Positions 1,437-20,628 of a stretch of DNA of 64,000 nucleotides are shown one piece after another. The notes below the pieces were generated by a model, which saw nothing but the letters and a program-made list of their open reading frames with translations, was not told the DNA's origin and searched no databases. The DNA comes from Butyrivibrio sp. (GTDB taxonomy: Bacteria; Bacillota; Clostridia; Lachnospirales; Lachnospiraceae). The DNA is taken from contig NZ_JAGAYD010000015.1 in the NCBI RefSeq assembly GCF_017940685.1, positions 3,785 through 67,784 on the forward strand. The letters are read 5' to 3'. The translations under genes were made by a program, and so were the position numbers. Numbering within the stretch: the stretch's first letter is position 1; the number at the start of each line of letters is the position of its first letter.

Positions 1437-1473
1437 GCTAAACGCGATAATTCGCTAAGGAGAATAACGCTTT

Positions 1474-2559
1474 ATGAATTTGCCTATTACAGTTAATCAA
1501 GAAGATTTATTGGAAATTCTACTCAACATTGCGCCTGCAAGACCGGTGTTTATTTGGGGAGCTCCCGGAATAGGAAAGTCTGCCTTGGTTGAGAAGTTTG
1601 CCATGGAGGTTGGCCTTGAGTGTGTTTCGCTTTTGGGCTCTCAGCTTGCGCCGGAGGATATTATTGGAATTCCACAGATAAGAGGAGAAACTTCGGAGTT
1701 TCTTCCGCCTAAGATGATTGCTAGAAAGGAGCCATACGTTCTTTTCCTGGATGAGCTTAATGCATGTACGCAGGAAGTGCAGAAGGCATTTTATAGTCTT
1801 ATATATGAGAGAAGGATTGGTGAGTATCACCTTCCTGAGGGCAGTGTAGTTATCGGTGCAGGAAACAGAGCCCAGGACTCCGCCATTGTAAAGACCATGT
1901 CTAGTGCGCTGATCAATAGGATGTTCCATGTTCAGCTCAAGCCTGATGTTAAGAGCTGGCTTTCATGGGCTTATGAGAGCGGTATTCATAGCTGGATAAC
2001 TGATTATATCAGTCAGAGGCCAGATCATCTTTTCTCTGATCCACCCAAAACCGAGGAACCCTTTTCTACGCCAAGATCCTGGCACATGCTCAGCGATGCG
2101 CTGAAGGAGTTTGGCGCTGGAGATAAAGAGATTCCAATCGAGACGATCAGAATGCTTGCTTACGGAAGTGTAAGTGCGAGCCATGCTGGGATGTTTGCAG
2201 CATTTGTTAAGCAGCTCGATAACAAGTATTTGCTTGAAGATATTATCAAAGGTGAAGCCAAGTGGCCTGATAAACCTGAGGATAGAGATGTACTGTACTT
2301 CCTCGCTCAGTCCTTCCGAGCAAGACTTCTTCATGATCTGCCTACGCAGAAGTCGGAGATAGACAAGAAAAATCAGTATTTTGCTCATAGGGCGAAAGCT
2401 CTTTTGAAGGAGCTGGCACAGCTTAACTATGAGCTTGCACAGATGGTGGTATCTGCAGATGATGGCAAGATCCTTCCTGAGTGGTTCATGGTTGAGATAG
2501 TAAGGGATTTGCCACGCCTTGCATCACAGGATAAGAAAAAAGATGGGAAAACAGCGTAA
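1474..2559 (+). CDS. MoxR-like AAA+ ATPase
   Basis: Walker A GAPGIGKS, Walker B LFLDELN, GAGNR sensor, SALINR; RBS aaggag; overlaps the vWA gene. Confidence 0.9.
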   Translation: MNLPITVNQEDLLEILLNIAPARPVFIWGAPGIGKSALVEKFAMEVGLECVSLLGSQLAPEDIIGIPQIRGETSEFLPPKMIARKEPYVLFLDELNACTQEVQKAFYSLIYERRIGEYHLPEGSVVIGAGNRAQDSAIVKTMSSALINRMFHVQLKPDVKSWLSWAYESGIHSWITDYISQRPDHLFSDPPKTEEPFSTPRSWHMLSDALKEFGAGDKEIPIETIRMLAYGSVSASHAGMFAAFVKQLDNKYLLEDIIKGEAKWPDKPEDRDVLYFLAQSFRARLLHDLPTQKSEIDKKNQYFAHRAKALLKELAQLNYELAQMVVSADDGKILPEWFMVEIVRDLPRLASQDKKKDGKTA

Positions 2560-4405
2560 AGAAAAAGAAGATCCAAATCTCATCCGGCTTAATCAAGGAA
2601 TTGCAATTCTTGATGAACACGATGTATTTAAGCATCTGATTCTATTTAATCTTAGAATTGCAGGAAAGAATGAGCTTGGAAAGAAAACTCCTGCAATCTC
2701 TAATTCTAATGGACTAATTCTGGTTAACAAGAATATAAGTCTTTCACCTAAGCAGTGGGCATATGCTATAGCCCACTGCATTTTGCATAATTGCTTTGGA
2801 CATTATGATGAGGATAAGGTTCCCGGGTATTTCGAGGTTGATGAAACCGGAAAAAAGATAAAGAGGGTGAACTTCAACAAAAAGCTTTGGAATATAGCCT
2901 GTGACATATATGTTGATAGATTTCTTCATGATATCAGACTTGGCGAGCCGCTTAATCAGTCTCCTGTCGGAGTTATACCCTTCAGTATCATGGAGGATGA
3001 ACAAAAGATATATGACTATCTTATCAGGGAAAACTGGAATGAGGATAACAACATATACGGAGTAGGTGCGCTGGATTCCATGGACATGGTCGGATTGGAC
3101 AAGCCCTTGGTGTACAAAAAGGACCGATGGGGAGTTCAGGAACAGAATGAATTTGCCAGTGATTTTGCTTATTATCTGGCTAAGTCGGTTTCCAATGCAA
3201 TTGATTATGTGGCTGATCATGAGGATGATAACTCTTTTGGAAAAAGAATTGCCAGCTGGTTTATAAATACGTTTCCACTCTTAGGAGCTATCGCATCGTC
3301 CTTCAAGATAGTGGAAGATATAAATGAATGTAGAAAATATGACATCAGTACTGCAGCTGTTGACGCCTATGAGGGAATTATCTATATCAATACATCAAAG
3401 AGCATGTCTGATGAGGAGTGGCGCTTTGTTATGGCGCATGAATTCATGCATGCAGCTCTTTTACATCATACAAGAGCTGCAGGTAGGGACCATTATCTTT
3501 GGAATATTGCAACGGACTACGTTATCAATGGCTGGCTTGTAGATATGAAAGTGGGATCAATGCCAGAAGGCGTCTTATATGATCCTAAGCTCAAAAATAT
3601 GTCTGCAGAAGAAATCTATGATGAGATCATTCTGGATATGAGAACCTACATGAAGCTTAATACCTTCAGAGGAAACGGTCAGGGCGATATCATGGGAAAA
3701 AGAGCTCCAGCCTCCTTTGGAGGGCAGGGAAGGGGCGTTTCTTTAGATGAGTTCTATAGGAATGCTCTTAATCAAGGGCTTGAATATGAATTGGCAAGAA
3801 GGGGCAGAGGCTATATTCCTGCAGGGCTTGTGCAGGAGATAAGGGCGCTTGCGGTACCACCTGTGCCTTGGGATGTTAAGTTATCAGAGTGGTTCAATGC
3901 ACATATAAGGCCGCTTGAAAAACATAGAAGCTATGCTCATCCCAGTAGGAGACAGAGTAGTACTCCGGATATTCCAAGAGCAAGCTATGTGATCACAGAG
4001 ACAGATAATGCAGCCAGAACTTTTGGAGTGATCATTGATACCTCAGGATCAATGAATGCTGAAGATATTGGAAAAGCGCTGGGGGCTGTATCAAGCTACG
4101 CTGCAGCAAGAGACGTAATGGCTGCCAGAGTGATTTTTTGCGATGCGGATGCTTACGATGGTGGCTACATGACTCCGGATGAAATCGCAGGAAAGGTCAA
4201 GGTTGTTGGCCGAGGAGGAACAAGAATCCAACCTGCCGTAGATCTTTTGCAGAGAGCAAAGGACTTTCCTAAGGACGGACCAATACTGATCATTACTGAT
4301 GGATGGATCGAGGATCACCTGGATATTAAGCGTGAACATGCCTATATACTTCCCACCGGAGGAAGGCTTCCGTTCAGGGCTAGAGGTGAAGTTTTCTACA
4401 TGTAA
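2543..4405 (+). CDS. DUF2201-type putative metallopeptidase + C-terminal vWA domain protein
   Basis: HEFMH (HExxH) plus an earlier degenerate HCILH copy; MIDAS DTSGS, GGGT-like GRGGT, ITDG; start reassigned to ATG 2543. Confidence 0.85.
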   Translation: MGKQRKEKEDPNLIRLNQGIAILDEHDVFKHLILFNLRIAGKNELGKKTPAISNSNGLILVNKNISLSPKQWAYAIAHCILHNCFGHYDEDKVPGYFEVDETGKKIKRVNFNKKLWNIACDIYVDRFLHDIRLGEPLNQSPVGVIPFSIMEDEQKIYDYLIRENWNEDNNIYGVGALDSMDMVGLDKPLVYKKDRWGVQEQNEFASDFAYYLAKSVSNAIDYVADHEDDNSFGKRIASWFINTFPLLGAIASSFKIVEDINECRKYDISTAAVDAYEGIIYINTSKSMSDEEWRFVMAHEFMHAALLHHTRAAGRDHYLWNIATDYVINGWLVDMKVGSMPEGVLYDPKLKNMSAEEIYDEIILDMRTYMKLNTFRGNGQGDIMGKRAPASFGGQGRGVSLDEFYRNALNQGLEYELARRGRGYIPAGLVQEIRALAVPPVPWDVKLSEWFNAHIRPLEKHRSYAHPSRRQSSTPDIPRASYVITETDNAARTFGVIIDTSGSMNAEDIGKALGAVSSYAAARDVMAARVIFCDADAYDGGYMTPDEIAGKVKVVGRGGTRIQPAVDLLQRAKDFPKDGPILIITDGWIEDHLDIKREHAYILPTGGRLPFRARGEVFYM

Positions 4406-4461
4406 TTTAAAGGGCGATAAATAGTACACCTTATGAGTACAATAAGGTAGTAGGAGATACT

Positions 4462-5064
4462 ATGACTACTAAAGAAAAGATCATTTTTGAGATAAATGGT
4501 GCTGATGCTAAGAAGCTAAAGAGATTTGAGCGACAGCATAAGAACTGCCCTATGGGAATGGAGGGAGGAAGATTTTCTTATACATTTATACCCACAGGTC
4601 TTGGACTTGCAATAACAGTGAAATGCTCGTGCGGACAGCAGCTTCTTCTCGGAGACTTTTTAGATGGACCAGGTGCGGAGTATGATGAGGAAAATTTACG
4701 GCCATTAACTGAGGATGGCATTAAGAATAAACAGTTTGAGGAAGCTGCTCTGATGATACTAGGTCTTGAGGATCGCAGATTCTTTAAGATGGCTATTGGA
4801 CTGGAGCAGTCCTTTGAGATTGTTTATGCCTATGCTGTGGGAGTCGCACGTTATGGAGATCCAAGGATATCAAAGGCGATTCTTTATAAGGTAAGCGTAA
4901 ATGCACTGCATAGACAAGTGAAGAATTATACAGGGACTGAAGAAGAAAACCTGGAGAAATTCTTTGAGCATTTTAAGTCAGTGGTTTTGGAAGAGATGGA
5001 TAAGTACCATTCTGACAATGAGAGGCTTAGAGAAAAGTGTTTGAGCAAGCAGAATAAGTATTGA
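4462..5064 (+). CDS. Hypothetical protein
   Basis: 200-aa ORF with RBS aggag; CxCG motif. Confidence 0.7.
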   Translation: MTTKEKIIFEINGADAKKLKRFERQHKNCPMGMEGGRFSYTFIPTGLGLAITVKCSCGQQLLLGDFLDGPGAEYDEENLRPLTEDGIKNKQFEEAALMILGLEDRRFFKMAIGLEQSFEIVYAYAVGVARYGDPRISKAILYKVSVNALHRQVKNYTGTEEENLEKFFEHFKSVVLEEMDKYHSDNERLREKCLSKQNKY

Positions 5065-5127
5065 TGACCATTTTGCCCAAGTGGGAAAAATGGATGAAAT
5101 GGGTGTTGCACAAAAAGGAGATTGAAA

Positions 5128-5985
5128 ATGGGAAGAGACGAAAACGTTATTATTTTTGAAAATGCACAGCTGCTCTGCAAGGAGAATAAAAAACTCAGTG
5201 AAGCAATTGCGGCGTCAAATTCTGCACAGAAGCTGATTTTGGAAAAGGATCAGATTCCTGAAGCTGATAAGAATAGATATGAGGAACAGGCAAAGGTTGT
5301 CATTTCAAAAAAGAGGTCCTATGAAGCAGCAAGTGCGTATAAAGATATGAAGGTGGCAGTTCATAACTTTGCTTCTGCATCAAACCCGGGCGGTGGAGTA
5401 GTTCGCGGATCAACAGCTCAGGAGGAGTGTTTGTGCAGATGTTCAACGCTGTATTTTAATCTTGATGTAAAGGAAATGTGGTATGGGTTTTATAACCCAC
5501 ATCGTGCAGCTCACGATCCAATCCATAACGACGATATTATCTATACGCCAGATGTAGTAGTGTTTAAGACTGATACGGCGTATCCGCAGGTAATGCCAGA
5601 AAATGAATGGTATAAGGTTGATGTTATAACCTGCGCTGCGCCGAATCTCAAACCTAACCCAACAAATTATTTTAATCCGGGTGATGGCAACAAGCAGGCT
5701 AAGCTCAATGACAATGAGCTGCTTGCGCTTCATGAAAAGAGACTTAGGAGAATTCTTGAAGTAGCTGCTAATAATGGTGCTGAAGCGGTAATCCTTGGTG
5801 CCTTCGGCTGCGGAGCATTCCAGAACAAGCCAGAGGTTGTAGCTTTGGCAGCTAAGAATGTGATTAAAGATTATTTGCATGCCTTTAAGGTAATCGAGTA
5901 TGCGGTTTACTGTGGCCCAAGGGATGATAGGAATTATAAGGTGTTTGAAAGGACGCTGAAGTTGTTCGCACAGGAAAAGAAATAA
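5128..5985 (+). CDS. TIGR02452-family microbial PARG-like macrodomain protein
   Basis: NFASASNPGGGVVRGSTAQEE PARG signature; ILGAFGCGAF macrodomain loop. Confidence 0.88.
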   Translation: MGRDENVIIFENAQLLCKENKKLSEAIAASNSAQKLILEKDQIPEADKNRYEEQAKVVISKKRSYEAASAYKDMKVAVHNFASASNPGGGVVRGSTAQEECLCRCSTLYFNLDVKEMWYGFYNPHRAAHDPIHNDDIIYTPDVVVFKTDTAYPQVMPENEWYKVDVITCAAPNLKPNPTNYFNPGDGNKQAKLNDNELLALHEKRLRRILEVAANNGAEAVILGAFGCGAFQNKPEVVALAAKNVIKDYLHAFKVIEYAVYCGPRDDRNYKVFERTLKLFAQEKK

Positions 5986-6196
5986 AGTGATAGCATTGAA
6001 ATGCTAATAAAAGAAGTGATTAGTAGAGCAAAGAATAGCAGGTGTTTGTTAAAATAATTTAACAAACACCTGTTTGTACATTGGGGGTTGAATATTTCTT
6101 GAAATGTGGTAAAATAAGTAAAATTGAAGTAATTGCTCATGCTGATTAACTAGTAAATTTCACGGATACATATAATTTAATATAACAGGTGTTACA

Positions 6197-7021
6197 ATGG
6201 CTAATAATGATCAGATTAATAATCAAGAGTTTGCTGATATTGTTAGATCTGCACGAGGCAATAGAAGCCTAAGAGAGTATGCTCAACTTGCAAACGTTAG
6301 CTATATGACAATATATAAGGCTGAGCGAGGAGAGTACATACCAAGTTCAAAGACAATCAAGAAGTTATCTACAGGGCTTGCCAATCCTCAGAATGGTGTT
6401 ACGTATGAGGATATGATGGTGGCTGCTGGATATCAGGATAAGGAAGCCGTGTCTGAAACGGCCAGCATTTTAGCTGAGCAGATGGTAGAAGAATCCTATT
6501 CTGACAATAATAATCAGCCAATTGTCACGATAAACCATAAAGGAATTAGCATGGCTGGCAATAGGGGAAGATTAGACTATCTCGAATACGAGAGACGGGT
6601 AACAGGGATTATTCTTTCATCGATGGTGCAGAACAATATATATTTCAGTAATAATAGAGCTTATGATGGAGGCATTAGATCAAGAGTACCGGATGTTATT
6701 CTCGATATTGAGAAGGCTCCAATTACACAGTGGTGGTTTGAAATAAGATATTTTTCAGAGACACGAAGGTTTACACCTATAAGTGTACAGCTTACATTAG
6801 CGAATGCTCTTGCATATCAAAACTCTAAGACAACAAAAGGATCTATTGTAGTAAATACTAAGGATGCATTTGATTTTTTGGCAAGAAGGGCTTATCAAAT
6901 CGCTTACAGAGGAGAGTTGTCGGTAATATTGGTGGATGAGTTCGAACAGAAGGTGATAGCAGAGCGCTATTTATCAAATTATTTTGAAGGAGATCATAGC
7001 TCGGAAATTCTGTTGGTTTAA
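6197..7021 (+). CDS. XRE HTH regulator with C-terminal restriction-endonuclease-like domain
   Basis: N-terminal RGNRSLREYAQLANVSYMTIYKAERG HTH; C-terminal PDVILD...FEIR resembles a PD-(D/E)xK core. Confidence 0.7.
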   Translation: MANNDQINNQEFADIVRSARGNRSLREYAQLANVSYMTIYKAERGEYIPSSKTIKKLSTGLANPQNGVTYEDMMVAAGYQDKEAVSETASILAEQMVEESYSDNNNQPIVTINHKGISMAGNRGRLDYLEYERRVTGIILSSMVQNNIYFSNNRAYDGGIRSRVPDVILDIEKAPITQWWFEIRYFSETRRFTPISVQLTLANALAYQNSKTTKGSIVVNTKDAFDFLARRAYQIAYRGELSVILVDEFEQKVIAERYLSNYFEGDHSSEILLV

Positions 7022-7080
7022 CAGAAACTGAATCTTTTGAAAGGGGTGATGCTTAGTGAAAGCCTATGGCCCGGAAAAAT

Positions 7081-7110
7081 AAAAGAGAGACGTTCGTCAA
7101 AACGTCTCTC
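7081..7110. terminator. Hairpin with 5' A-run
   Basis: gagagacgtt/aacgtctctc 10-bp stem downstream of the XRE gene. Confidence 0.45.
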
Positions 7111-7360
7111 CTGAAATGAATCAGATGCGTCAACATCTGACCAATATGAAGTATTTTTGAACCCTGTCCGAGTTCACTTCATATCCATAAGATACCATTT
7201 TGCACTTTTTTTTGCAATCACCGTACAGTTTAATGGTGTTCTTAAAAAATTCATTTCAGGTATTTTTCCCAGTTTAACAACAATATATGGAACTTGTTGG
7301 GTGCTTTTGGCATGTATTATGCCAATGGCTACGTTTGTTTACCGTAAAGGGAGGGAGATA

Positions 7361-7630
7361 ATGCCTATTAGAGTTATTAATTGTCAGGCCACATGCGCCA
7401 ATCTTAAGCGACTCATGGAAGAAAAGGGGCTTAAGCCCAAGGATATCCGAGATATACTCAATCTGGATTCTGTTCAGAGCGTGTATAAGTGGTATGCCAC
7501 AGCAAGAGGGAAGGGGAGCAGTGTTCCTTCAGTGGATAATGTCATAATACTTGCGTATATCCTTGGAGTTACATTAGATGAAATTTACGTCACCAATGAG
7601 GTGCTTTATGAGGTTAAGAAAAGGCCATGA
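7361..7630 (+). CDS. XRE-family HTH regulator
   Basis: NLKRLMEEKGLKPKDIRDILNLDSVQSVYKW HTH; start reassigned to ATG 7361 after RBS gggaggga. Confidence 0.8.
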   Translation: MPIRVINCQATCANLKRLMEEKGLKPKDIRDILNLDSVQSVYKWYATARGKGSSVPSVDNVIILAYILGVTLDEIYVTNEVLYEVKKRP

Positions 7631-8268
7631 AATCTAGAGTTTATTTGATCGACTACGAGAATGTTCACAAGGAGGGTCTAGAGGGAGCGGAAGCTCTCTC
7701 TAGATCTGACAGAGTCATAGTATTCTACAGTGTTAAAGCTGATTCTATTTCCATTGACACATTAAATAAGTGCAAGGCAAAGATAGAGTTTATTAAGGCT
7801 GAAGTAGGAACGCTCAATGCGATGGATTTCCAGCTTGTAGGATATCTTTTTTATCACATGAAGAAGAACAGAGATTATTACATAATTACTCGTGATCAGG
7901 GATTTAGAGCAATACTGAACATGGCTAAGAACTTAGGAATGTCAGTAAAAATCAAAGCATATATTGGCGAGAAAGATCTTGAAGATAAAGTAATAAAATT
8001 CAGTGAAGCAGACAAAGAGATGACGGAGTATGGTATAGACTCACGCGCCATTGTGAAAGTTGCGAGCCTTATTAGAACAAGCATTGGCATAGTACCAACG
8101 CCTGATGTCTTACAAATGGTTATCGACGGGATTAAGAATTATCCTACGAAAGCAGATTTTTATTTGTATTGCACCAGAACTCTAGGACAGGCTCCTGGTC
8201 AGGCCTTTTATTCAAGCATAAAAAAGAAATTTCTTGAGATCAAGGAAATTGTTGACTTGGCATCATGA
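7627..8268 (+). CDS. PIN/NYN-like domain protein
   Basis: YLIDYENV, DFQL and ITRDQGF acidic PIN-type motifs; ATGA overlap with the upstream HTH gene. Confidence 0.7.
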   Translation: MKSRVYLIDYENVHKEGLEGAEALSRSDRVIVFYSVKADSISIDTLNKCKAKIEFIKAEVGTLNAMDFQLVGYLFYHMKKNRDYYIITRDQGFRAILNMAKNLGMSVKIKAYIGEKDLEDKVIKFSEADKEMTEYGIDSRAIVKVASLIRTSIGIVPTPDVLQMVIDGIKNYPTKADFYLYCTRTLGQAPGQAFYSSIKKKFLEIKEIVDLAS

Positions 8269-8995: not shown

Positions 8996-9191
8996 AAAGT
9001 GTAATCTCCCGGCGAGAAGTGGCCTGATGTTTGATTATGTTTCCAATAGCTATTATATCAGACATTTCTTTCGCTTATATGTGAATGTTGAGAAAAAGTA
9101 AACCACAGGTATATTTTTTTCCTGCTCATATTATGGTAATATATGCGAGCGGGATGGCGTTGATGATTCTTTTTTGTAGAAGGAGGCGACC

Positions 9192-9563
9192 ATGGATATT
9201 TTTGATGTGTTTGTAGACATGCAGGCGACTGGTGATCGGATCAAGCAGCTTCGTAAAGAGAAACACATGAGAGTATTTGATCTTGCAAATGCTCTGGGAC
9301 TTGAATCTGAGCAGGCCATTTATAAATGGCAGCACGGTCAGTGTTTACCAAACGCTGACAATCTTGTAAGACTTAGCATATTGTTTGGATGCCATATTGA
9401 TGACATTCTTATTCATAACATGACAGGAGAGGACGAAAGTCCTCTTCTTCCTTTATACGAGGAATTTGGAAGGACTTGGCGTTTATGTGCCAGGTCCTTT
9501 TTTCAACTACACGGTGAATGTAATTTGCGGTTGACGTCTTTAGAATGGTTGTATAGGCAATGA
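9192..9563 (+). CDS. XRE-family HTH regulator (C-terminal extension probably spurious)
   Basis: RBS aggagg; GDRIKQLRKEK...AIYKWQHGQCLP HTH; the ORF runs through two hairpins. Confidence 0.75.
   Translation: MDIFDVFVDMQATGDRIKQLRKEKHMRVFDLANALGLESEQAIYKWQHGQCLPNADNLVRLSILFGCHIDDILIHNMTGEDESPLLPLYEEFGRTWRLCARSFFQLHGECNLRLTSLEWLYRQ
9470..9503 (+). terminator. Intrinsic terminator
   Basis: aaggacttggc/gccaggtcctt stem plus T-tract. Confidence 0.6.
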
Positions 9564-9605
9564 TTCAATACCTCAGTGGAGGTCAGCGTATTAGGAGGGA
9601 GCATC

Positions 9606-10244
9606 ATGGGAAAAATAGAAGTAAGAGGAAATGCAGCAAGGACTGTGGATTATGATCGTATGAAAGTTGAAATCAATTTTCATTCAGTAGAAATGTTGCC
9701 GACAGCAGCTTCAGAGAAATCCATGAAGGAATGTGAGGAATTCTTGAAGGTGCTAAAGGGGGATGGCTTTGATATTTCAAAAATCGCAATAAAAAGAGAT
9801 AGTGTTGAGCGTGATTATTATAGCAACAGAGATGATGAGCAAAGATACAGGGCGGATCGCACGTTGGAAATCGCTTCCGAGTTTAATATGAAGCTTATAA
9901 ATGACCTTCGTGACATTATAAATAACATGGAATATCAAATAGGCTTCAAGGTTGATTTTTCGCTGTCAAATGAGGAAGACATAAAGAATGAGCTTCTAAC
10001 AGAGGCGCTTAAGGATGCAAAGAAAAAAGCTGAGACAATGGCAGATGCCATAGGACAAAGGGTAATAGGGCTAGTTTCTGCAGATAAAACAGCGCCAAAA
10101 ACAGAAAAAGATGATTTTGGAGGAGGATTTTTCGTGGGGTGTGTTTGTGCACAGGATGAAATACCATACGAATATTCAGACGAGTTATCTGCATCGAACA
10201 CGACATTATCTGAGTTTATTTATACTACATGGGAGATTGCTTAA
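9606..10244 (+). CDS. SIMPL (DUF541) domain protein
   Basis: GKIEVRG...LLTEALKDAKKKAETMADAIG pattern typical of SIMPL; RBS ggaggga. Confidence 0.75.
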   Translation: MGKIEVRGNAARTVDYDRMKVEINFHSVEMLPTAASEKSMKECEEFLKVLKGDGFDISKIAIKRDSVERDYYSNRDDEQRYRADRTLEIASEFNMKLINDLRDIINNMEYQIGFKVDFSLSNEEDIKNELLTEALKDAKKKAETMADAIGQRVIGLVSADKTAPKTEKDDFGGGFFVGCVCAQDEIPYEYSDELSASNTTLSEFIYTTWEIA

Positions 10245-10254
10245 GGGGAAAAAT

Positions 10255-10461
10255 ATGAGTAAAGCTAAGGAAGAATTTGAAAAAGCGAATAGAGCTTTTT
10301 CAGAGTGCTGTTGGGTTAAGCCATATGACCGCATCAGAATTTTAGCACCAAGACAGATAGAAAAATGCATTCTTCAAGTAGAGAAGTGGGTAAAAGATGG
10401 AGAAGATGTATCTTTGCATAGGGTTAAGGAGTGGTTAATTGAAAAGAATCAATTGCTTTAA
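10255..10461 (+). CDS. Small hypothetical protein
   Basis: 68-aa ORF starting at ATG 10255 after aagggg. Confidence 0.5.
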   Translation: MSKAKEEFEKANRAFSECCWVKPYDRIRILAPRQIEKCILQVEKWVKDGEDVSLHRVKEWLIEKNQLL

Positions 10462-10467
10462 TTACTG

Positions 10468-10522
10468 AACCACAGGTTTAGCGACAAACGTCTCTACAGC
10501 AGATAAAATCTTACTATCAGAT
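10468..10522 (+). promoter_or_regulatory. SigmaA-like promoter with conserved operator (copy 1)
   Basis: -35 gcgaca 10481-86, 17-bp spacer, -10 taaaat 10504-09; 25/30 identical to 17412-17441; shares downstream tatcagat at the same offset. Confidence 0.65.
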
Positions 10523-10553
10523 CAAGAAAGTGTTGATTATGGAGGGTATTGTT

Positions 10554-11069
10554 ATGGCAAAGATGACATCAGCATATGCAAATAAGGTTTTGAGAAGGCT
10601 CAATGATGACAAGGATTTTTACCTCAACAAGGAACAGGAGGGTCAGGTGTACGTAGCTTCCCTTGATGAAGAGCCTGTTGTTCCAGATTATGACTATTTG
10701 GATGTTTCTACTAAGATTGCAGAGATAGATGCAAAGATCGTAAAGATAAAGCACGCTATCAATGTTACAAACGTTACTAGTACTGTTAAGGTTGGCGGCG
10801 TTGCTATGACCATTGATGCGGTACTTGTTAAAATGGCTCAGCTCAACAAGAGAAAGAGCATTCTTGATGCCATGCGTAAGCGCCAGGAAAAGACAAGAGT
10901 GAGTGCTGGATATTTTACGTCAAGGAAGACAGCTCCTGAGTATCAGTACATCAATTACGACCTTGAAACTGTTAACAAGGAATATGAACGAATCGATGGA
11001 GAGATTGCAGAAATGCAGATCACTCTTGATAAGTTCAATCAGACCTTTGAATTTGATGTTGAGGTGTAA
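10554..11069 (+). CDS. DIP1984/DUF6847-like coiled-coil protein
   Basis: 171 aa; INVTN and C-terminal FNQTFE motifs and helical heptad character resemble DIP1984-like proteins (recalled, not searched); RBS ggaggg. Confidence 0.6.
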   Translation: MAKMTSAYANKVLRRLNDDKDFYLNKEQEGQVYVASLDEEPVVPDYDYLDVSTKIAEIDAKIVKIKHAINVTNVTSTVKVGGVAMTIDAVLVKMAQLNKRKSILDAMRKRQEKTRVSAGYFTSRKTAPEYQYINYDLETVNKEYERIDGEIAEMQITLDKFNQTFEFDVEV

Positions 11070-11075
11070 AACCTT

Positions 11076-11298
11076 TTCCGTGCAGCAGGTGTTAACAAAT
11101 AACAGGATGAGTGTTAAGTGAGAATACATGTTTAAAGTTGTGGTTCTTGGTTATCAGTTATTCTTTATTGAATTATTGTTTATAGTTGCGGCTACAATTG
11201 GTGATGATGCGTATGAGCATTTTTTACATCTGTTTGCAGAAAACTTGTACTTTATGGTACGCGGGGCATGGAAGTTCGGTTTCACATGCCTCTTTTTT
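11076..11298 (+). ncRNA. Putative structured 3' RNA with U-rich 7-nt periodic tract
   Basis: Long-range stem 11081-92/11226-38, stem 11092-97/11112-17, heptad repeats 11138-87, hairpin 11207-20, then terminator. Confidence 0.5.
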
Positions 11299-11305
11299 GT
11301 TTTTT
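11263..11305 (+). terminator. Intrinsic terminator
   Basis: ggggcatg/catgcctc stem followed by long T-tracts. Confidence 0.75.
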
Positions 11306-11317
11306 ATGGAAAAAAAG

Positions 11318-11521
11318 ATGGAAAAGATTAAGAAGACAGGTGCTTCATGTTGGTTTAAAAAGGACTTTAAAAGAGAAAGCGTATAGGACAAGTTGTATCG
11401 CTGGAGAATGAATATTAAATACATATATCAGCGTGCCAAGTACGGATATTGTGATAGGGATATATGGTCCATTGATTATTGGTTTCTGAAAGCCAAATGG
11501 TTTTGGCATCTATGGGATTGA
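11318..11521 (+). pseudogene. Disrupted hypothetical gene
   Basis: In-frame TAG at 11384-86 interrupts MEKIKK...ESV*DKLYRW...QRAKYGYCDRDIWSIDYWF. Confidence 0.45.
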
Positions 11522-11656
11522 TGCTTTCAACTAGCAGTTAAATGACAGGCGTGGCATAGAATAGTACGATTGAATTAAGTATATGTTGATTTGAGTTTAG
11601 GGAGTCGTGCTAATGAATTCTAAGATATTAGGTTTTATAAAGGATAATCCGGATAC

Positions 11657-11938
11657 ATGGGAAAATACGCGAAATTATGGATTTGTGCAAGAAATACGAA
11701 GAGCTTGAGGGGGATGATTGTGGCAGATTTGAACCTTGGTGGAAGGATATATTGTGATATTCCTGATGATTTAGCAAGTAAGATTATTGATGAAATACGT
11801 TCCGCAGAAAAGCTGGATCGTGATGAATTGGAACGTAAGTGCCAGGAACTAAAACAGAAGATTGTTTTTAAAAGAGGGAAAAGGCTTGAGCAGAGTATTA
11901 GTAATTCCAGATGTGCATTTAAAACCCTGGATTTTTGA
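11657..11938 (+). CDS. Hypothetical protein
   Basis: 93-aa ORF overlapping the next gene. Confidence 0.45.
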   Translation: MGKYAKLWICARNTKSLRGMIVADLNLGGRIYCDIPDDLASKIIDEIRSAEKLDRDELERKCQELKQKIVFKRGKRLEQSISNSRCAFKTLDF

Positions 11939-12599
11939 TAAGGCAGATAAAGTTGATAAGAGTTCATATGATGACATTGTGGTTCTTGGTGATCTGGTTG
12001 ATGATTGGGGACAGGGAAATAATCTTGAATTGTATAGGGAGACATTGGATAGGGCGGATGCGTTTGGTGCAGAGCACAATGAGTCCCTCTGGTGCTATGG
12101 TAATCATGATGTTTCATATCTGTGGGATGCAATGGAATCAGGGTACTCTGTAGTTGCAAGAGAAACTGTAATTGAAGGCATTACTAAGCTAGAGAGAACA
12201 CTGGAAGATCGATATAAGTTTATTCACAAGATAGATGATGTGCTATTTAGCCATGCGGGACTTGCTGAGACTTTTGTTTTACATGGATGTGGATATCATA
12301 TGAAAGAAATTGAGGATATTCTTGCTAAGGTCAATCGTATGGGGATGCAGGATTTATGGAGGAACAGTTCTCCAATATGGGTAAGACCGCAGCATGCTTT
12401 CATAAGGATGTTCAGAGATGACCTCTTTTACCAGGTAGTAGGACATACTCCTGTTGAGGAACCACTTGACGCTTGTGGGACGCTGACGCTGGATCTCTTT
12501 TCAACCTATTCAGATGGAACAGCTTATGGTAATCAGAAACTGTACATCATAGATACTATTACAAGAAAGCTTGAGGAAGCTAAGTATGAGGAATCCTGA
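11886..12599 (+). CDS. Calcineurin-like metallophosphoesterase
   Basis: DVH, GDLVD, GNHD, SHAG and GHTP motifs; probable TTG start at 11886. Confidence 0.85.
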   Translation: MSRVLVIPDVHLKPWIFDKADKVDKSSYDDIVVLGDLVDDWGQGNNLELYRETLDRADAFGAEHNESLWCYGNHDVSYLWDAMESGYSVVARETVIEGITKLERTLEDRYKFIHKIDDVLFSHAGLAETFVLHGCGYHMKEIEDILAKVNRMGMQDLWRNSSPIWVRPQHAFIRMFRDDLFYQVVGHTPVEEPLDACGTLTLDLFSTYSDGTAYGNQKLYIIDTITRKLEEAKYEES

Positions 12600-12657
12600 G
12601 AGAATAAGGCCTTTTTGGGACAAGATAGCAGAAGCATGGAAATCCGGTTGTATATAA
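12586..12657 (+). pseudogene. 5' fragment of a DUF1040/YihD-like gene (paralog of 14832-15071)
   Basis: MRNPERIRPFWDKIAEAWK matches MRDPKRIRPFLDKLAEGWE, then stops after 23 aa. Confidence 0.65.
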
Positions 12658-12763
12658 GATAAAAAGCGGTCTTATGTCTCAGGATAGAATAGAGTTCTTT
12701 TTGTCAGAAAACGGTGTGTGGTTAACAAAGGCTGTTCCGGTGAAATATTTGGAGAAAATATAG
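12632..12763 (+). pseudogene. kptA: 3' remnant of RNA 2'-phosphotransferase (Tpt1/KptA)
   Basis: KHGNPVVYKIK/SGLMSQDRIEFFLSENGVWLTKAVPVKYLEKI* with one extra A in the run at 12661-66; matches the recalled Tpt1 C-terminal HGxPVV...SxNGVWLT motif. Confidence 0.65.
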
Positions 12764-12895
12764 AAATGCTTAGGGCCTCATCATTTTAGAATAGATATAT
12801 AGGGTCAAGGCTATTTTTTGCTGACCATCTTATAGTACACCAAAAATGGATAATGGAATCGTGGAGGCAAATAACTCAGAGGAAAGGAGACGCCT

Positions 12896-13549
12896 ATGCC
12901 AACAAATTGGGGTGCTATATCGCCGTATACGTCGAAAAAAAAGTATATGACAGGCCAGCCAGATAAGAAGGGCACGATAGCTTATTGTCACAATATCAAA
13001 CATAAAGGCGCTCTTTCTAAAGGGATGGTCAAGCAACATGAATGCATACAGAAGAACTGCAAGTTTTTTGAAAAGAACCTCGAAAATCCATATTGGGCTG
13101 GTAGGGACCACTACAGGAACCATAAGAAAAGAGATAAGAAGACAAGGAAGTATCTTGAAACTCAGGGGCTAGATGTTAAGCAAACAACTGGAAATTTGCT
13201 GACTGTAAGCAGTTCAAGCATCAATTCGGATCTGGGCAAGATGCTCCAGTTTTTTGATGAGATTGAAGTGTTTCATTCATATCTCTTTTACCGGAATGGA
13301 AATTGGCAGATGAGATATGTTGGTGGATTCTATGGGAAAGATGTCGCAATAGATAAGGCCAGAGAGTTCATATTAGCAGGCAAAGGAGAATATCTCCTGA
13401 TTGCAGGTGATAAGACTCCACTTGTTGGATATAGGATTGAATGCAGGAGTAAGGTGCTCATTGAGATAGACCTTACATGGGGACATATGTATCCGGCGCT
13501 AGCAAGAATGGTATTAAGAGATTTACAACTGAGAAGGGAATCAGCATAG
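12896..13549 (+). CDS. Hypothetical protein
   Basis: 217-aa ORF, RBS aaggag; N-terminal C/H-rich cluster. Confidence 0.65.
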   Translation: MPTNWGAISPYTSKKKYMTGQPDKKGTIAYCHNIKHKGALSKGMVKQHECIQKNCKFFEKNLENPYWAGRDHYRNHKKRDKKTRKYLETQGLDVKQTTGNLLTVSSSSINSDLGKMLQFFDEIEVFHSYLFYRNGNWQMRYVGGFYGKDVAIDKAREFILAGKGEYLLIAGDKTPLVGYRIECRSKVLIEIDLTWGHMYPALARMVLRDLQLRRESA

Positions 13550-14773: not shown

Positions 14774-14831
14774 TGGCACCATCTGAAGTATATTTTAACG
14801 TAAGTAATTATATGAAAAGAGGGCGATAGAT

Positions 14832-15071
14832 ATGAGAGATCCAAAAAGAATAAGACCGTTTTTAGATAAGCTGGCTGAAGGATGGGAAAAGTATCCAGAT
14901 TTGCGATTTGGTCAATTGGTGATGGATATTGTACCTGACTCTGATAGATTATGGAACTGCGAAGAAGCTGAGTTTCTGAAAAGACTAGATAACTTCGTAT
15001 CCAGAATTGAAGAGGAACATGATGGGAATCTGCTTCTGGTACCGAGAAATGATTCTGACAATGATTTATGA
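14832..15071 (+). CDS. Small DUF1040/YihD-like protein
   Basis: MRDPKRI...W...PDLRFGQL signature; ends 24 nt before the retron ncRNA. Confidence 0.65.
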   Translation: MRDPKRIRPFLDKLAEGWEKYPDLRFGQLVMDIVPDSDRLWNCEEAEFLKRLDNFVSRIEEEHDGNLLLVPRNDSDNDL

Positions 15072-15095
15072 TTTGGTCCGGATTGGATAATAATT

Positions 15096-15262
15096 TGCGG
15101 AACTCTAGCGCAGCTGGCAAACGTCGGCACGAGTGGCGAGTCGTTACTCGGAAAAGAACTATGTAGCATTATAATTGTAGCTGTTCCACTGTAGTGAAAT
15201 GCACGCTTCACGTGCTAGACTACAGCTCCACAGCAACAATATTCTTACTGTTTTGTTCCGCA
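15096..15262 (+). ncRNA. Retron msr-msd ncRNA
   Basis: Terminal inverted repeat tgcggaac (15096-103)/gttccgca (15255-62); TAGCG with candidate branching G at 15108; two msr hairpins (15113-28, 15130-50); long msd stem-loop 15174-15240. Confidence 0.85.
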
Positions 15263-15288
15263 TTGGTATGTAATGGAGGAAAGTTAAT

Positions 15289-16212
15289 ATGGTTGTTCAC
15301 AGAGAGCTTTCCTCCCTGTGCCAAGATCTTGGTTATTCTGCAAGAGCGTTATATTCGCTGAGTAATTCAGTGTCTGAGCACTATCATGATGCTATGATCC
15401 CTAAGGCAAATGGAGAATATAGGCTCTTACATATTCCGGATAAGTTCATGAAAGCTGTTCAGAAGAGTATCGCACAGAATATTCTGTCTTATGAGGATAT
15501 CTCACCCTATGCCATGGCATATAGACCCGGAGGCAGTACTAAGGCAAATGCATTCCCTCATGTGGGTGCATCAATGGTTATGAAGCTTGATGTGCGTAAA
15601 TTCTTCGATCACATTACCTATCCTATGGTAAAGGAAAAAGTGTTTCCGTCAGAGAAATACTCGGAATCAAATAGAATACTTCTGTCGGTTTTGTGTGTTT
15701 ATAATCATGCAATACCTCAAGGAGCGCCAACTTCTCCGGCTATTTCTAATATAATTCTTAGAGATTTTGATAATCGCGTCGGCGACTGGTGTGGTAAAAG
15801 CGGTATTACATATACCAGATACTGCGATGATCTTACCTTTTCTGGGGAGTTTGAGCCGAAAGAGGTAAAGGCATTTGTGAAGAAAGAATTATTCAAGGAA
15901 GGCTTTTTTCTTAATTCCAAGAAAACGATTGTGCTTCGAAATGGGCAGCGCAAAGAAATTACAGGAATTGTTGTCAATGAAAAGGCAGCTGTGCCTGCAA
16001 GATATAAAAAGAGAATAAGGCAGGAACTTTATTATTGCCGGAAATTTGGGATTGATGAGCATGTAAAGAGACTTGGATTACCTGAAAGTACCGAAGCATA
16101 TGCAAGGAAGCTTCTTGGCAGAATCAATTACGTTCTATCAGTTGAACCCGATAATGATGAAATGAAAAGGGGAAGAGCTGAGCTATTATCTTGGTTTCAG
16201 TCTACTTCCTAA
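15289..16212 (+). CDS. Retron-type reverse transcriptase
   Basis: NAxxH region X (NAFPH), PQGAPTSP, YCDD catalytic motif, ITG region Y; RBS ggagga; no fused domain. Confidence 0.93.
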   Translation: MVVHRELSSLCQDLGYSARALYSLSNSVSEHYHDAMIPKANGEYRLLHIPDKFMKAVQKSIAQNILSYEDISPYAMAYRPGGSTKANAFPHVGASMVMKLDVRKFFDHITYPMVKEKVFPSEKYSESNRILLSVLCVYNHAIPQGAPTSPAISNIILRDFDNRVGDWCGKSGITYTRYCDDLTFSGEFEPKEVKAFVKKELFKEGFFLNSKKTIVLRNGQRKEITGIVVNEKAAVPARYKKRIRQELYYCRKFGIDEHVKRLGLPESTEAYARKLLGRINYVLSVEPDNDEMKRGRAELLSWFQSTS

Positions 16213-17325: not shown

Positions 17326-17411
17326 GGCATCTTAGAACTATTTGATTGTCAATTAACTATTGGTATACTCTGTGGAAGATAATGGCAAATGTTATAAATA
17401 ACTGTTTTTTA

Positions 17412-17466
17412 AACCAGAGGTTTAGTGACAAGTGTGTCTACGTTGATTAGAATCATATTATCAGAT
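17412..17466 (+). promoter_or_regulatory. SigmaA-like promoter with conserved operator (copy 2)
   Basis: -35 gtgaca 17425-30, 17-bp spacer, -10 tagaat 17448-53; gaca-N4-tgtc dyad; homologous to 10468-10522. Confidence 0.65.
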
Positions 17467-17488
17467 GGAAAATTGTCTGTCAGCTAAA

Positions 17489-17591
17489 GATGTCCTGTGA
17501 CGGTTCTGACAGGACGGTAAACAAAAAATTGACCGAGCGTGGATGTCCTGTGACGGTTCCGACAGGACGGTAAAATAAAAATTGACCGAGC
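17489..17591 (+). repeat. Tandem 50-nt direct repeats (period 53)
   Basis: gatgtcctgtgacggttc(t/c)gacaggacggtaaa...aaaaattgaccgagc at 17489-538 and 17542-591; partial unit tail at 17471-84. Confidence 0.9.
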
Positions 17592-17606
17592 TGAAGAGAA
17601 GGATAT

Positions 17607-17648
17607 TACGCCGAAGGGCAAAAGTACTTGATTGTACGCCGAAGGGCA
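17607..17648 (+). repeat. Two copies of tacgccgaagggca
   Basis: Identical 14-mers at 17607-20 and 17635-48. Confidence 0.85.
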
Positions 17649-17649
17649 C

Positions 17650-17677
17650 GGGCATCTATCATGGTGCCCATTTTTTT
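17650..17677 (+). terminator. Intrinsic terminator
   Basis: gggcatc/ggtgccc stem followed by a T7 tract. Confidence 0.65.
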
Positions 17678-17757: not shown

Positions 17758-17925
17758 ATGGAAGGACCATTTGATAAGCTTTATGGAAACACAGTGTTTG
17801 ATCTCAACCACGATGGGAAGATCGATGCGGCTGAGACAGCTTTTTTGTATGATACAATATTAAGTGACGTGATTTCAGACTCGAATGAGAGCGCATTTGA
17901 TGAAGATGAGGAAGATGAGTTTTGA
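17758..17925 (+). CDS. Small acidic protein with EF-hand-like loop
   Basis: 55 aa, DLNHDGKIDAAE loop; RBS aaggag. Confidence 0.6.
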   Translation: MEGPFDKLYGNTVFDLNHDGKIDAAETAFLYDTILSDVISDSNESAFDEDEEDEF

Positions 17926-17926
17926 A

Positions 17927-18895
17927 ATGAAGACACATTTAAGAGAGGTTGGTTTTGCAAATAGAATATTTGCTTTGTTGCTAGTGCTTTCTTGGGGTAT
18001 GTCTTCTTTTCTGTTTTGGAGCGTAAAGAGTCATGCTGAGGATGAGGTTCCGGCTTATAACAAAAGTGCATTTGTTGCTCTTAATAAGAACGTACCGGTA
18101 TTCACGGATGAAGAGATCACCACAAGCTCTTTTGAAAAATATGGAGAGCTTGATAAGCTGGGGAGGTGTACGGCAGCGGTAGCATGTATTGGTCAGGATC
18201 TGATGCCTACCGAGGAGCGTCAGGCTATTGGTGATGTTAGACCGACCGGATGGAAGCAGAACAAATATCCTGGGGTTGTAGATTCGGATCCCCCGTATCT
18301 GTACAACAGATGCCACATGATCGGATATCAGCTTACTGGCGAGAATGCCAATGAAAAGAATCTGATCACCGGAACTCGGTACATGAATGTGGAAGGTATG
18401 CTGCCTTATGAGAATCAAGTGGCGGAGTATGTGTTAAGTACCGGCAGGCATGTAATGTACAGAGTTACGCCAGTATTTACCGGGAAAAATCTTCTCTGTG
18501 ATGGAGTGCAGATTGAAGCGTATTCTGTAGAAGATAAGGGCAAAGGTATTTCTTTTAACGTGTTCTGCTACAACGTTCAGCCTGGAATAGAGATAAATTA
18601 TGCAGATGGCAGCAATAAGCTTGCACCGGATGCAGACGTGGTGGCTGACAGAAATTCTTTTATGATAACTGGCGGAGATTCCGGGAATGGATCAGTAAGG
18701 TCTTCGGCAGGAAGTGATGCTTCTGGTATTCCGGCAGGAACAACATATGTGGTAAACAAGAATACAGGTAAGTTCCATTATCCAAGCTGTGACAGCGTTA
18801 ATGATATGAAAGAGAAAAATAAGGAATACAGCACCAAGACAAGGGATGAGCTGATAAGTGAAGGAAAGAGTCCTTGCAAGAGGTGTAATCCGTAG
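17927..18895 (+). CDS. Secreted/membrane DNA/RNA non-specific endonuclease (EndA-like) with C-terminal Ada-like Zn motif
   Basis: N-terminal hydrophobic segment; NRCH motif, NLITGTRYMN; C-terminal KFHYPSC...PCKRC. Confidence 0.88.
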   Translation: MKTHLREVGFANRIFALLLVLSWGMSSFLFWSVKSHAEDEVPAYNKSAFVALNKNVPVFTDEEITTSSFEKYGELDKLGRCTAAVACIGQDLMPTEERQAIGDVRPTGWKQNKYPGVVDSDPPYLYNRCHMIGYQLTGENANEKNLITGTRYMNVEGMLPYENQVAEYVLSTGRHVMYRVTPVFTGKNLLCDGVQIEAYSVEDKGKGISFNVFCYNVQPGIEINYADGSNKLAPDADVVADRNSFMITGGDSGNGSVRSSAGSDASGIPAGTTYVVNKNTGKFHYPSCDSVNDMKEKNKEYSTKTRDELISEGKSPCKRCNP

Positions 18896-18906
18896 GGGCT
18901 ATAACT

Positions 18907-18945
18907 AATACTTCGATGCCTAATATAGCATCGGAGTATTTTTTT
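18907..18945 (+). terminator. Intrinsic terminator
   Basis: aatacttcgatgc/gcatcggagtatt stem plus T-tract. Confidence 0.75.
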
Positions 18946-19003
18946 GAATATAATTAGTTGATAGTAAATGAAGACTTCTTGATTTGATATTGGAGGGAAA
19001 ACA

Positions 19004-19315
19004 ATGATCAAAATTTACGGAATGCCTACATGTCCATATTGCGATTACATTCATGAGCAGATAAGAGGACGCGAGAATGAATTTGAGTACATAAACATAG
19101 GTGAGAATATCAGAAACATGGGGGCTTTTACCAGACTTCGTGATACCAATCCGGTATTCGATCATTCCAAGGAAATTGGCGATGTTGGCATACCGGCCTT
19201 TGTTCTGGAAGATGGTAGTATAACTCTTGACCCGGCAGTTGTGGGGCTTATTGAATATGGAACACCTGATGCCTGCTCTATAGAAGACCATAAAAGTGGA
19301 AGAAAAGGGTGCTGA
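19004..19315 (+). CDS. Glutaredoxin-related protein
   Basis: CPYC active site, VGIP motif. Confidence 0.8.
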   Translation: MIKIYGMPTCPYCDYIHEQIRGRENEFEYINIGENIRNMGAFTRLRDTNPVFDHSKEIGDVGIPAFVLEDGSITLDPAVVGLIEYGTPDACSIEDHKSGRKGC

Positions 19316-19387
19316 CTGACGAGTTCCTTGAGGATGGGATACCACACGTAAAGATGGAACGAAGAATGCAAGCAAGAGGTTAAAGAA

Positions 19388-19798: not shown

Positions 19799-19866
19799 GT
19801 GTTTGCGCAGATGGTTAGTAAAACATCGATTAAGCTGATTGACGTGGAGGACTTGGACTAAGACTT

Positions 19867-20061: not shown

Positions 20062-20087
20062 GGGGATGAGAAAGAGGACTGACGGAG

Positions 20088-20534: not shown

Positions 20535-20628
20535 GGAGAATTGAAACGTGAGTGTTAAATGTCTAAAGTGGCTGAGAAAAGAGACACGGAAAAGTAAGAA
20601 GAACGTGATGGAGGAGGGTGATTAAAGT

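Follow-up and report, generated by a model that had tools for sequence, protein, structure and literature searches.

Behind a DIP1984-like gene for a 171-amino-acid (aa) protein in a Butyrivibrio sp. genome lies a U-rich tract in which short motifs recur about every seven nucleotides (nt), and this raises the question of what the tract is and whether it belongs to the gene in front of it. The locus is part of a 64,000-nt stretch (assembly GCF_017940685.1, contig NZ_JAGAYD010000015.1, forward-strand positions 3,785 to 67,784), which we call the window and whose numbering we use throughout. A first-pass annotation, made from the letters alone, had proposed that the gene and the non-coding sequence after it form a protein-RNA module. 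We found that positions 10466-11305 are a self-contained cassette of about 840 bp, in which the stop codon ending at 11069 is followed by some 235 nt that contain no conserved open reading frame (ORF). Homologues keep the downstream structure, its covariation and its periodicity, and the gene and the RNA are almost never found apart.

The RNA begins 4 nt 3' of the stop codon. In the 400 nt behind the stop codon of each homologue, a common layout could be read nearly everywhere: a UUUCCGUGCAG box, a variable segment, a run of GUU or GUUAU motifs, the sequence CUGCARAAAACUUG, a small hairpin, and a final hairpin with the nearly invariant loop GAAGUUCGGUUUCA. RNAalifold, applied to a MAFFT alignment of 44 RNAs, gave two helices, which we call P1 and P5, and two more, PK1 and PK2, were found by inspection. 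A covariance model built on P1 and P5 only (R1) yielded a second alignment of 99 matches, 93 of them distinct, and in the window's own genome it finds the RNA as a single copy. The parts of this RNA are as follows.

11074-11304, plus strand: the structured RNA as a whole, about 231 nt, which R1 matches over its full length (160.6 bits, E = 1.5e-35)
11078-11080, plus strand: CCG of the UUUUCCG box, the 5' strand of PK2, pairing with CGG at 11277-11279 in the P5 loop
11081-11092 (core 11081-11087), plus strand: 5' strand of P1, from the RNAalifold consensus
11093-11127, plus strand: variable 5' segment or hairpin, without a conserved helix in RNAalifold, with an extra GUUAAG unit (11113-11118) that close relatives also have
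11130-11187, plus strand: GUU array, nine register positions at a spacing of about 7 nt, with GUU at 11130, 11137, 11143, 11150, 11157, 11178 and 11185
11207-11210 with 11217-11220, plus strand: small post-array hairpin AUGC-GUAUGA-GCAU, present in the single-sequence fold
11226-11238 (core 11232-11238), plus strand: 3' strand of P1, from the RNAalifold consensus and covariation counts
11239-11246, plus strand: GAAAACUU linker, whose AACUU (11242-11246) is the 5' strand of PK1 and pairs with AAGUU at 11272-11276
11247-11260, plus strand: hairpin P4, GUAC-UUUAUG-GUAC, variable in length and missing in some relatives
11264-11270 with 11285-11291, plus strand: stem of hairpin P5, whose 14-nt loop GAAGUUCGGUUUCA carries the 3' strands of both pseudoknots
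11292-11305, plus strand: U-run CUUUUUUGUUUUUU, U6GU6, which with P5 is an intrinsic terminator in this genome

P1 is the long-range stem that the first-pass annotation had drawn between 11081-92 and 11226-38, and comparison bears it out, with changes on both sides at 7/7 core pairs among the 93 distinct sequences; the stem pairs of P5 likewise covary at 7/7 positions. PK1 is kept by exchange of whole pairs, pair 11245/11273 being UA in 71 and CG in 19 of the 93 sequences and pair 11243/11275 AU in 88 and GC in 4. The two C-G pairs of PK2 are invariant, and its third pair, 11080/11277, is GC in 78, AU in 5, UA in 5, GU in 1 and unpaired in 2 of the 93 (GC in 39, AU in 4, UA in 1 and unpaired in none of the 44). 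When the four helices are taken together in the 44 sequences, 91.6% of cells are paired as against 78.5% in shuffles, 135 cells hold double changes as against 36, and none of 500 shuffles reaches the observed values; if the partners are slid by 1-3 columns, pairing falls to 28-43%. The same four helices in the 93 sequences give 85.9% paired cells against 69.0%, and 442 double-change cells against 142. The plus strand of 11070-11310 folds at z = -2.85 relative to shuffles and the minus strand at z = -0.75, and an RNA read from the minus strand was rejected on this asymmetry and on the strand-specific covariation.

As this comparison of sequences shows, the P5 loop clamps both single strands at the foot of P1, which makes the RNA a double pseudoknot in a pseudoknotted three-way arrangement, a feature that was absent from the first-pass annotation. 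A nested extension of P5 (GAAG with UUUC) that would replace PK1 was rejected, being broken in two loci (L015 and L035) where compensatory changes keep PK1. The annotation had also placed two hairpins inside P1; the post-array one recurs at the same place in relatives with changed stems, as judged by eye, whereas the one on the 5' side is variable. P4 shows compensatory changes in an RNAalifold run on nine close relatives, is poorly aligned across the family, and is absent from the distant loci L112-L114. The Rfam comparison foreseen in the annotation matched no family: cmscan of 9000-13000 against Rfam 15 (E <= 10) gave no plus-strand match in 11070-11310, and the sole overlap is a chance-level match on the minus strand (17.4 bits versus a gathering score of 86). 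The sequence at 11074-11304 is a conserved structured RNA of about 230 nt without a match in Rfam 15.

How faithfully does this RNA accompany the gene? A protein-anchored scan with one genome per species gave 77 loci, almost all in Lachnospiraceae of rumen and gut; the closest named relative, with 95% protein identity, is that of B. proteoclasticus P18. When the search started from the protein, the RNA lay directly behind the gene in 99 of 100 loci, and at the single miss (L073, 39% identity) GUU-rich units and an AAAACUU box are visible by eye. When it started from the RNA, 401 Lachnospiraceae genomes, sampled at one per genus and including that of the window, gave R1 matches in 42. Among the 41 other matches, 39 directly follow a co-oriented, full-length gene whose product is 34-72% identical; the exceptions are two remnants (L158 and L163) and one degenerate orphan RNA (L162). 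A further 399 Clostridia genomes gave four matches in two other families, and all four have the gene (35-38% identity). Both RNA-first searches combined, 43 of 46 matches outside the window's own genome stand right behind the full gene. Relatives are also encoded by 16 IMG/VR viral contigs found by a protein-profile search (35-57% identity), with the RNA firm in 13 and partial or weak in the other three, all 16 at E <= 0.021; an exact DNA search of the viral contigs with the P5 loop word gave no match. Gene and RNA co-occur near-obligately and in the same orientation in gut and rumen bacteria and in phages, which upholds the module of the first-pass annotation.

The exceptional loci have features of their own. 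L158 and L163 keep about 99 nt of the RNA beside a gene fragment of 23 or 48 aa, both gene and RNA being truncated, and L162 (G436:C187:640-887, minus strand) has no DIP1984-like gene upstream; all three are decay products of the cassette. In Oribacterium sp. WCC10 (L006:3001-3513), the gene contains one in-frame stop (MCKR*EKTR) and is either a pseudogene or affected by a sequencing error, while the RNA is intact and is the top R1 match.

An RNA that starts so soon after a stop codon might be no more than the end of the message, that is, a purely cis-acting 3' untranslated region that serves as an ornate terminator or stability element, or as an autoregulatory site, without a separate RNA product. 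P5 and its U-run do terminate the unit, and a promoter comparison, which covered the region upstream of the gene only, showed no conserved internal promoter. The strong terminator that the first-pass annotation had placed at 11263-11305 is real: a GC-rich hairpin with a covarying stem is followed directly by the U-run, and a simple terminator scan missed it because its loop is 14 nt long. However, a strong U-run follows P5 in only 33 of 79 homologues and is lacking in 46, others having a separate terminator or a tRNA gene there, and termination is therefore a secondary role of P5, which is first of all structural and in this window also terminates the unit. A length of about 230 nt, a double pseudoknot and a nine-unit array, all kept down to 35% protein identity, go far beyond what termination needs. 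In many loci, moreover, a separate GC-rich hairpin precedes the UUUCCG box, and in phages the RNA abuts tRNA genes. We thus regard a purely cis-acting element as distinctly unlikely.

The hairpin before the UUUCCG box stands 5-40 nt upstream of it (for example in L010, L011, L016, L017, L024, L030 and L040), and the window is without it. Together with the U residues of the box, as a weak terminator-like tail, it may be a site of partial termination or of processing between mRNA and RNA.

Inside the P1 loop, the first-pass annotation had divided the tract at 11138-87 into seven near-heptad units. The 7-nt periodicity is indeed strongly conserved in the family, but the phasing is better described as GUU-N4 with nine register positions, for which the family consensus is GUUuAau GUUnng GUUnuug GUUAUUuu GUUAUUun UUAUnng UUAuu GUUuAng GUU. 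Conservation is highest on the triplets and drops in the spacers, in a 7-nt pattern. Among the 93 distinct homologues, the gaps from GUU to GUU inside the P1 loop are 6 nt long 92 times, 7 nt 206 times and 8 nt 72 times, where dinucleotide shuffles lead one to expect about 16 each (15.7 at the 7-nt mode); gaps of 6-8 nt make up 55.8% of the total versus 12.3% (sd 1.7) in the shuffles. From the first to the last GUU the median distance is 56 nt (interquartile range 55-59), or eight steps of 7.0 nt each. In the window, two degenerate U-rich units fill the 21-nt gap between the GUU at 11157 and that at 11178. The periodicity is weak in a single sequence, since Tandem Repeats Finder detects the heptads of the window's array (score 30, 4.1 copies of TTATTGT) at its lowest threshold only.

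The first-pass annotation had called this tract an unpaired core. That description holds insofar as the RNAalifold consensus of the 44 RNAs contains no conserved pairing partner for the array, but about 60% of the array is paired when single sequences are folded thermodynamically, and an intrinsically open array was rejected, as partition-function folding gives it no support. Small local helices that RNAalifold placed within the array in nine close relatives were not adopted, being mostly invariant or G-U pairs with little compensation. An AUAAC word in the 5' variable segment (window 11098-11110) is complementary to the GUUAU units and pairs with part of the array in the minimum-free-energy fold of the window. 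As a general feature, this 'anti-array' pairing was rejected because it is found in about 15% of sequences (14 of 93, versus 4.7 expected) and in one clade only.

Could the periodic conservation instead reflect a peptide or a function of the DNA itself? One ORF covers the array.

11128-11331, plus strand: 67-aa hydrophobic ORF over the array and through the terminator, rejected as a gene

The presence of this ORF, with its transmembrane-like N-terminus, would suit a small hydrophobic membrane peptide, as would the fact that some stop-free frame spans the array in 80% of homologues. Yet neither its start codon nor its frame is conserved (the frame is broken in G022/L023, with a stop after 17 codons in L023), and the array lengths modulo 3 are 41/27/25, so that they are not multiples of three. 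The conservation period is 7 nt and not 3 nt, the ORF reads through the terminator, and it has no Pfam or NCBIfam match, all of which makes a coding array barely credible. Alternatively, the repeats might act as DNA, as iterons, a recombination site or a protein array on the duplex, and a DNA-binding protein such as the neighbouring helix-turn-helix (HTH) regulator could in principle bind short repeats. We consider this very improbable, given that G-U pairs and compensatory changes preserve the helices on the plus strand only, in line with the asymmetry in folding, that repeats every 7 bp do not keep phase with the DNA helix, and that the array always lies behind the gene on the sense strand. 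Both the coding and the DNA-level readings are close to excluded.

If the array belongs to an RNA, the gene in front of it becomes the obvious place to look for a partner. The 5' part of the cassette contains the following features.

10466-10509, plus strand: promoter with palindromic operator, the dyad TGAAC-N5-GTTTA at 10466-10480, hexamers from a consensus scan
10481-10486 and 10504-10509, plus strand: -35 box GCGACA and -10 box TAAAAT, separated by a 17-nt spacer
10554-11069, plus strand: DIP1984-like gene, 171 aa, ATG at 10554, GGAGGG ribosome-binding site, TAA at 11067-11069

DIP1984/DUF6847 is a broadly distributed family of unknown function for which a crystal structure exists and whose members are often mislabelled 'septicolysin'. 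The 171-aa protein scores below the cut-offs of both family models (Pfam DUF6847 PF20935, 19.8 bits, E = 8e-4, cut-off 27 bits; NCBIfam DIP1984 NF038048, 20.8 bits, E = 3e-4, cut-off 70 bits), and only 15 of 43 relatives score E < 0.01 against the family model. Sequence searches of the PDB with the single protein and with a profile gave no match, 3KDQ included. Its AlphaFold2 model, made with 43 relatives (predicted local distance difference test [pLDDT] 91, predicted template modelling score [pTM] 0.73), has four long helices and a small sheet in an alpha/beta bundle. In a Foldseek search of the PDB with this model, the sole significant target was 3KDQ, which is DIP1984 of C. diphtheriae (chains C and A, E < 0.001, probability 1.00, TM 0.66-0.74), a full-length fold match at 14-15% identity. 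A profile comparison by hhalign with canonical DUF6847 (E = 6.8e-5, probability 63%, 116 columns) gives a weak relation in which the I-N-x-x-N and N-Q/W-T motifs are aligned. The first-pass annotation had described a DIP1984/DUF6847-like coiled coil; the DIP1984 fold stands, while the coiled coil gives way to an alpha/beta bundle that lies below both cut-offs. We assign the protein to the DIP1984 superfamily, in which it is divergent and stands outside Pfam DUF6847 as currently delimited.

Compared with predicted structures of viral proteins, the model resembles proteins without a characterised role in many large phages. A literature search returned no paper naming DIP1984 or DUF6847 among the matches listed, and its 3KDQ matches were irrelevant.

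The annotation had further supposed that the module has its own promoter, and this proved correct: most cassettes inspected are preceded by a TGAAC-N5-GTTYA operator that runs directly into an ATGACA-like -35 box, and after a 17-nt spacer comes a -10 box.

We favour, at somewhat better than even probability, the interpretation that the cassette encodes a protein-RNA particle in which an oligomer of the protein docks on the GUU array. A regulated sigma-70-type promoter would drive the 171-aa protein, and the RNA of about 231 nt, which begins just past the stop codon, would be made on the same transcript. P1 closes a loop of about 140 nt, with the CCG on the 5' side and the AACUU on the 3' side of its foot clamped by the P5 loop, and on the resulting scaffold nine units, each centred on GUU, follow one another in a 7-nt register along a stretch of constant length, 56 nt. 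Protein molecules or dimers would then dock on the array, one per unit, as TRAP and HutP do on triplet arrays, and the outcome would be a defined ribonucleoprotein particle made from a single transcript. We infer co-transcription and, because gene and RNA are strictly inherited together across large distances, because the 56-nt ruler is constant and because TRAP and HutP offer an analogy, the binding of protein to RNA, the array as its site and a stoichiometry of one protomer or dimer per unit.

Several observations weigh against such a particle. An exact GUU stands at only about seven of the nine positions, and the spacing ranges from 5 to 8 nt; the mean unpaired probability of the array in partition-function folding is 0.40, equal to that of the variable flanks; and the protein family is acidic, with a median pI of 5.4. 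A toxin-antitoxin relation would also account for the strict linkage, and so would an element that acts purely in cis. Finally, canonical DUF6847 genes (L132-L148) are followed by a different conserved element of about 200 nt which, as read from the sequences, is without GUU heptads, and binding to the array is therefore not a rule for the whole superfamily in this form. In favour of the particle, the otherwise acidic protein has basic segments at residues 1-20, 61-70 and 91-125, the last of which includes the least confident loop of the model.

The surroundings of the cassette could suggest what such a pair is for, and they contain one widely recurrent neighbour.

9192-9563, plus strand: XRE-family HTH regulator (Pfam HTH_26/HTH_3)

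Of 71 loci, 30 have a homologue of this gene upstream of the cassette in the same orientation, tblastn finds one in 37 loci, and the product is a candidate binder of the cassette operator. Among 150 flanking ORFs, the most frequent Pfam families after HTH are microbial PARG (5), metallophosphoesterase (4), RtcB (2) and HipA (2). In six loci (L011, L014, L017, L022, L029 and L037, at about 2050-2900 in each) a co-oriented PARG gene immediately precedes the DIP1984-like gene, and the genes downstream of the cassette vary among loci. Two viral contigs (L120 and L121) have PARG on the downstream side, 2-3 kb from the gene, and in the window itself PARG (5122-5985) is 4.5 kb upstream.

The window is a defence- or stress-type island. 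Its co-oriented genes at 324-8268 and 17885-28578 encode an nSTAND3/AAA ATPase, a MoxR AAA_5 protein with a DUF2201 VWA-metallopeptidase, PARG and HTH proteins, as well as PIN7, Endonuclease_NS_2, HipA and a 985-aa calpain-like protein. A retron reverse transcriptase lies 4 kb downstream of the cassette (15289-16209; PADLOC RT_Ec107-like, E = 4.5e-126; Pfam RVT_1), with its msr/msd presumably just upstream, at about 14830-15280; no retron effector was recognised among the flanking ORFs scanned. The window also contains a second non-coding RNA candidate (17410-17677), which is preceded at 17410-17465 by a nearly identical promoter and operator (10468-10530 compared with 17410-17472). This candidate consists of two 53-nt units, each a hairpin GUCCUGU-GACGGUUCN-GACAGGAC followed by GGUAAAnAAAAAUUGACCGAGC, with two GCCGAAGGGC mini-hairpins and a terminator. 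At locus L089, an RNA of the same type is found about 70 nt downstream of the DIP1984-type RNA, and the stem of its second unit is changed on both sides (GAUGUGU/ACACAUC).

Given this setting, the cassette might be a type III-like toxin-antitoxin or abortive-infection pair, in which the free protein is harmful, the co-transcribed repeat RNA neutralises it, and phage infection or RNA decay releases it. The pair is obligate, mobile and single-copy, it occurs in variable contexts and in a defence island that also encodes a STAND NTPase, HipA, PIN and a retron, and phages carry it. L006 keeps its RNA beside a broken protein gene, whereas an intact protein without the RNA is almost never seen, and another repeat RNA, likewise behind this promoter, is found close by. 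The construction of the RNA argues otherwise: its units are 7 nt long, lie downstream of the gene and sit in one pseudoknotted scaffold, while known type III antitoxins are built of tandem units, each about 30-45 nt long, that precede the gene of an endoribonuclease toxin, with a terminator in between, and are cleaved from one another by that toxin. The 3KDQ-like fold, too, resembles no known toxin, and PADLOC gave no match for the 171-aa protein. We therefore think a toxin-antitoxin pair rather unlikely.

Viral contigs point to another kind of neighbourhood, as the cassette lies inside a tRNA gene cluster in 8 of the 16, and in several of these a tRNA starts less than 100 nt after the RNA. 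The contigs L122, L123, L124, L127, L128, L129 and L131 (36-202 kb) carry the gene-RNA pair within a phage tRNA cluster; L129 and L131 have tRNAs on both sides of the cassette, and in L128 tRNA-Leu starts directly after P5, as one would expect if RNase P released a discrete, stable RNA. Among 60 bacterial loci only 5 have a tRNA at a distance of up to 3 kb, and two have tRNA-Gly about 50-60 nt after the RNA. The bacterial defence and RNA-damage islands, together with the phage tRNA clusters, suggest that the pair has a part in phage-host conflict centred on RNA or tRNA.

These contexts would also fit an RNA that acts mainly with or against a third partner, with the protein as its chaperone or stabiliser. 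The RNA could be a decoy or sponge, its UGUUA-type units imitating tRNA loops for a tRNA-modifying or tRNA-cleaving enzyme, or it could be an adaptor of the Y RNA kind. The phage tRNA clusters and the two tRNA-Gly genes speak for this, as do the recurrent neighbours with RNA-end and ADP-ribose chemistry, namely PARG, metallophosphoesterase and RtcB, and we take the central units UUGUUAU to fit the Y-U-GUU-A-N pattern of the tRNA-Asn anticodon loop. However, no more than 2-3 of the 9 units match that pattern, few bacterial loci are linked to a tRNA gene, phage tRNA regions gather many small genes, and no conserved candidate for the third partner lies beside the cassette. We hold a main role with a third partner to be unlikely.

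The particle reading could be extended well beyond this family. DIP1984 superfamily proteins and their cognate downstream RNAs might be a widespread, unrecognised class of ribonucleoproteins of bacteria and phages. In the branch found in Lachnospiraceae and phages, an oligomer would sit on nine GUU heptads of a double-pseudoknot scaffold, and the particle would act on tRNA or damaged RNA in phage-host conflict, for example by luring or sensing enzymes that recognise anticodon loops of the UGUU type. We offer this as a speculation that is more probably wrong than right by a wide measure.

How, then, does the cassette compare with systems already described? The nearest comparison is with canonical DIP1984/DUF6847. 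A canonical DUF6847 gene scored above the cut-off in 15 of 301 Bacillota genomes. The first-pass annotation had mentioned periodic tracts after DIP1984-like genes elsewhere; such tracts do not occur behind the canonical Bacillota genes that we fetched, and the element found there instead has blocks such as GGUARC, GGCGAG, UACUACC and, at its end, GUGAGGGUGGGnAnGGGG. Some copies of this element hold T-arm-like GGUUCRAnYCC hairpins, and two genomes have two tandem copies of the gene about 2 kb apart. The two groups share the same fold, a similar size and a conserved non-coding element behind the gene, but they differ in identity (about 14%), in the sub-cut-off scores of the window's protein and in the downstream blocks, the last as read from the sequences and not as scored by R1. 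A structured RNA behind a gene of the DIP1984 superfamily thus seems, from these sequence readings, to be general, and the RNA of the window is a separate family.

The bacterial Ro60 (Rsr) and Y RNA (YrlA) systems likewise combine a protein gene with an adjacent RNA in which an end-closing stem surrounds a functional module, and they too occur in RNA-repair contexts and in phages. In contrast to them, the RNA of the window has neither a tRNA-like domain nor an Rfam Y RNA match, and its protein is small and helical and not a HEAT-repeat ring. TROVE/Ro60 was not among the 25 most frequent Pfam families of the 150 neighbouring ORFs, in which no dedicated Ro60 search was made. Type III toxin-antitoxin systems (ToxIN, CptIN and TenpIN) resemble the cassette in joining a protein and a repeat RNA in one unit that is mobile and found in defence islands and phages. 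Beyond the length and position of the repeats, they differ from it in that the heptads are not separable pseudoknots and the protein is not a nuclease of the ToxN/Kid type; Tandem Repeats Finder found no long tandem unit in the RNA.

The array itself is closest to the sites of two RNA-binding proteins of Bacillus subtilis: TRAP, with 11 G/UAG triplets and spacers of 2-3 nt, and HutP, with UAG-N4 repeats at a 7-nt period. Like theirs, it has conserved triplets, weak spacers, a fixed register and a constant number of units and length, and its period equals that of HutP. Their arrays, however, are cis-regulatory sites in 5' leaders that compete with terminator or antiterminator hairpins, whereas the array of the window lies 3' of the gene of its own putative binder, inside the P1 loop of a stand-alone pseudoknotted scaffold, and the protein fold is unrelated. 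By tying a divergent DIP1984 branch to an uncatalogued RNA, these results turn an orphan protein family into a testable ribonucleoprotein hypothesis and add a new structured RNA class of about 230 nt; if the binding is true, the cassette would be a case of register-based RNA recognition outside TRAP and HutP.

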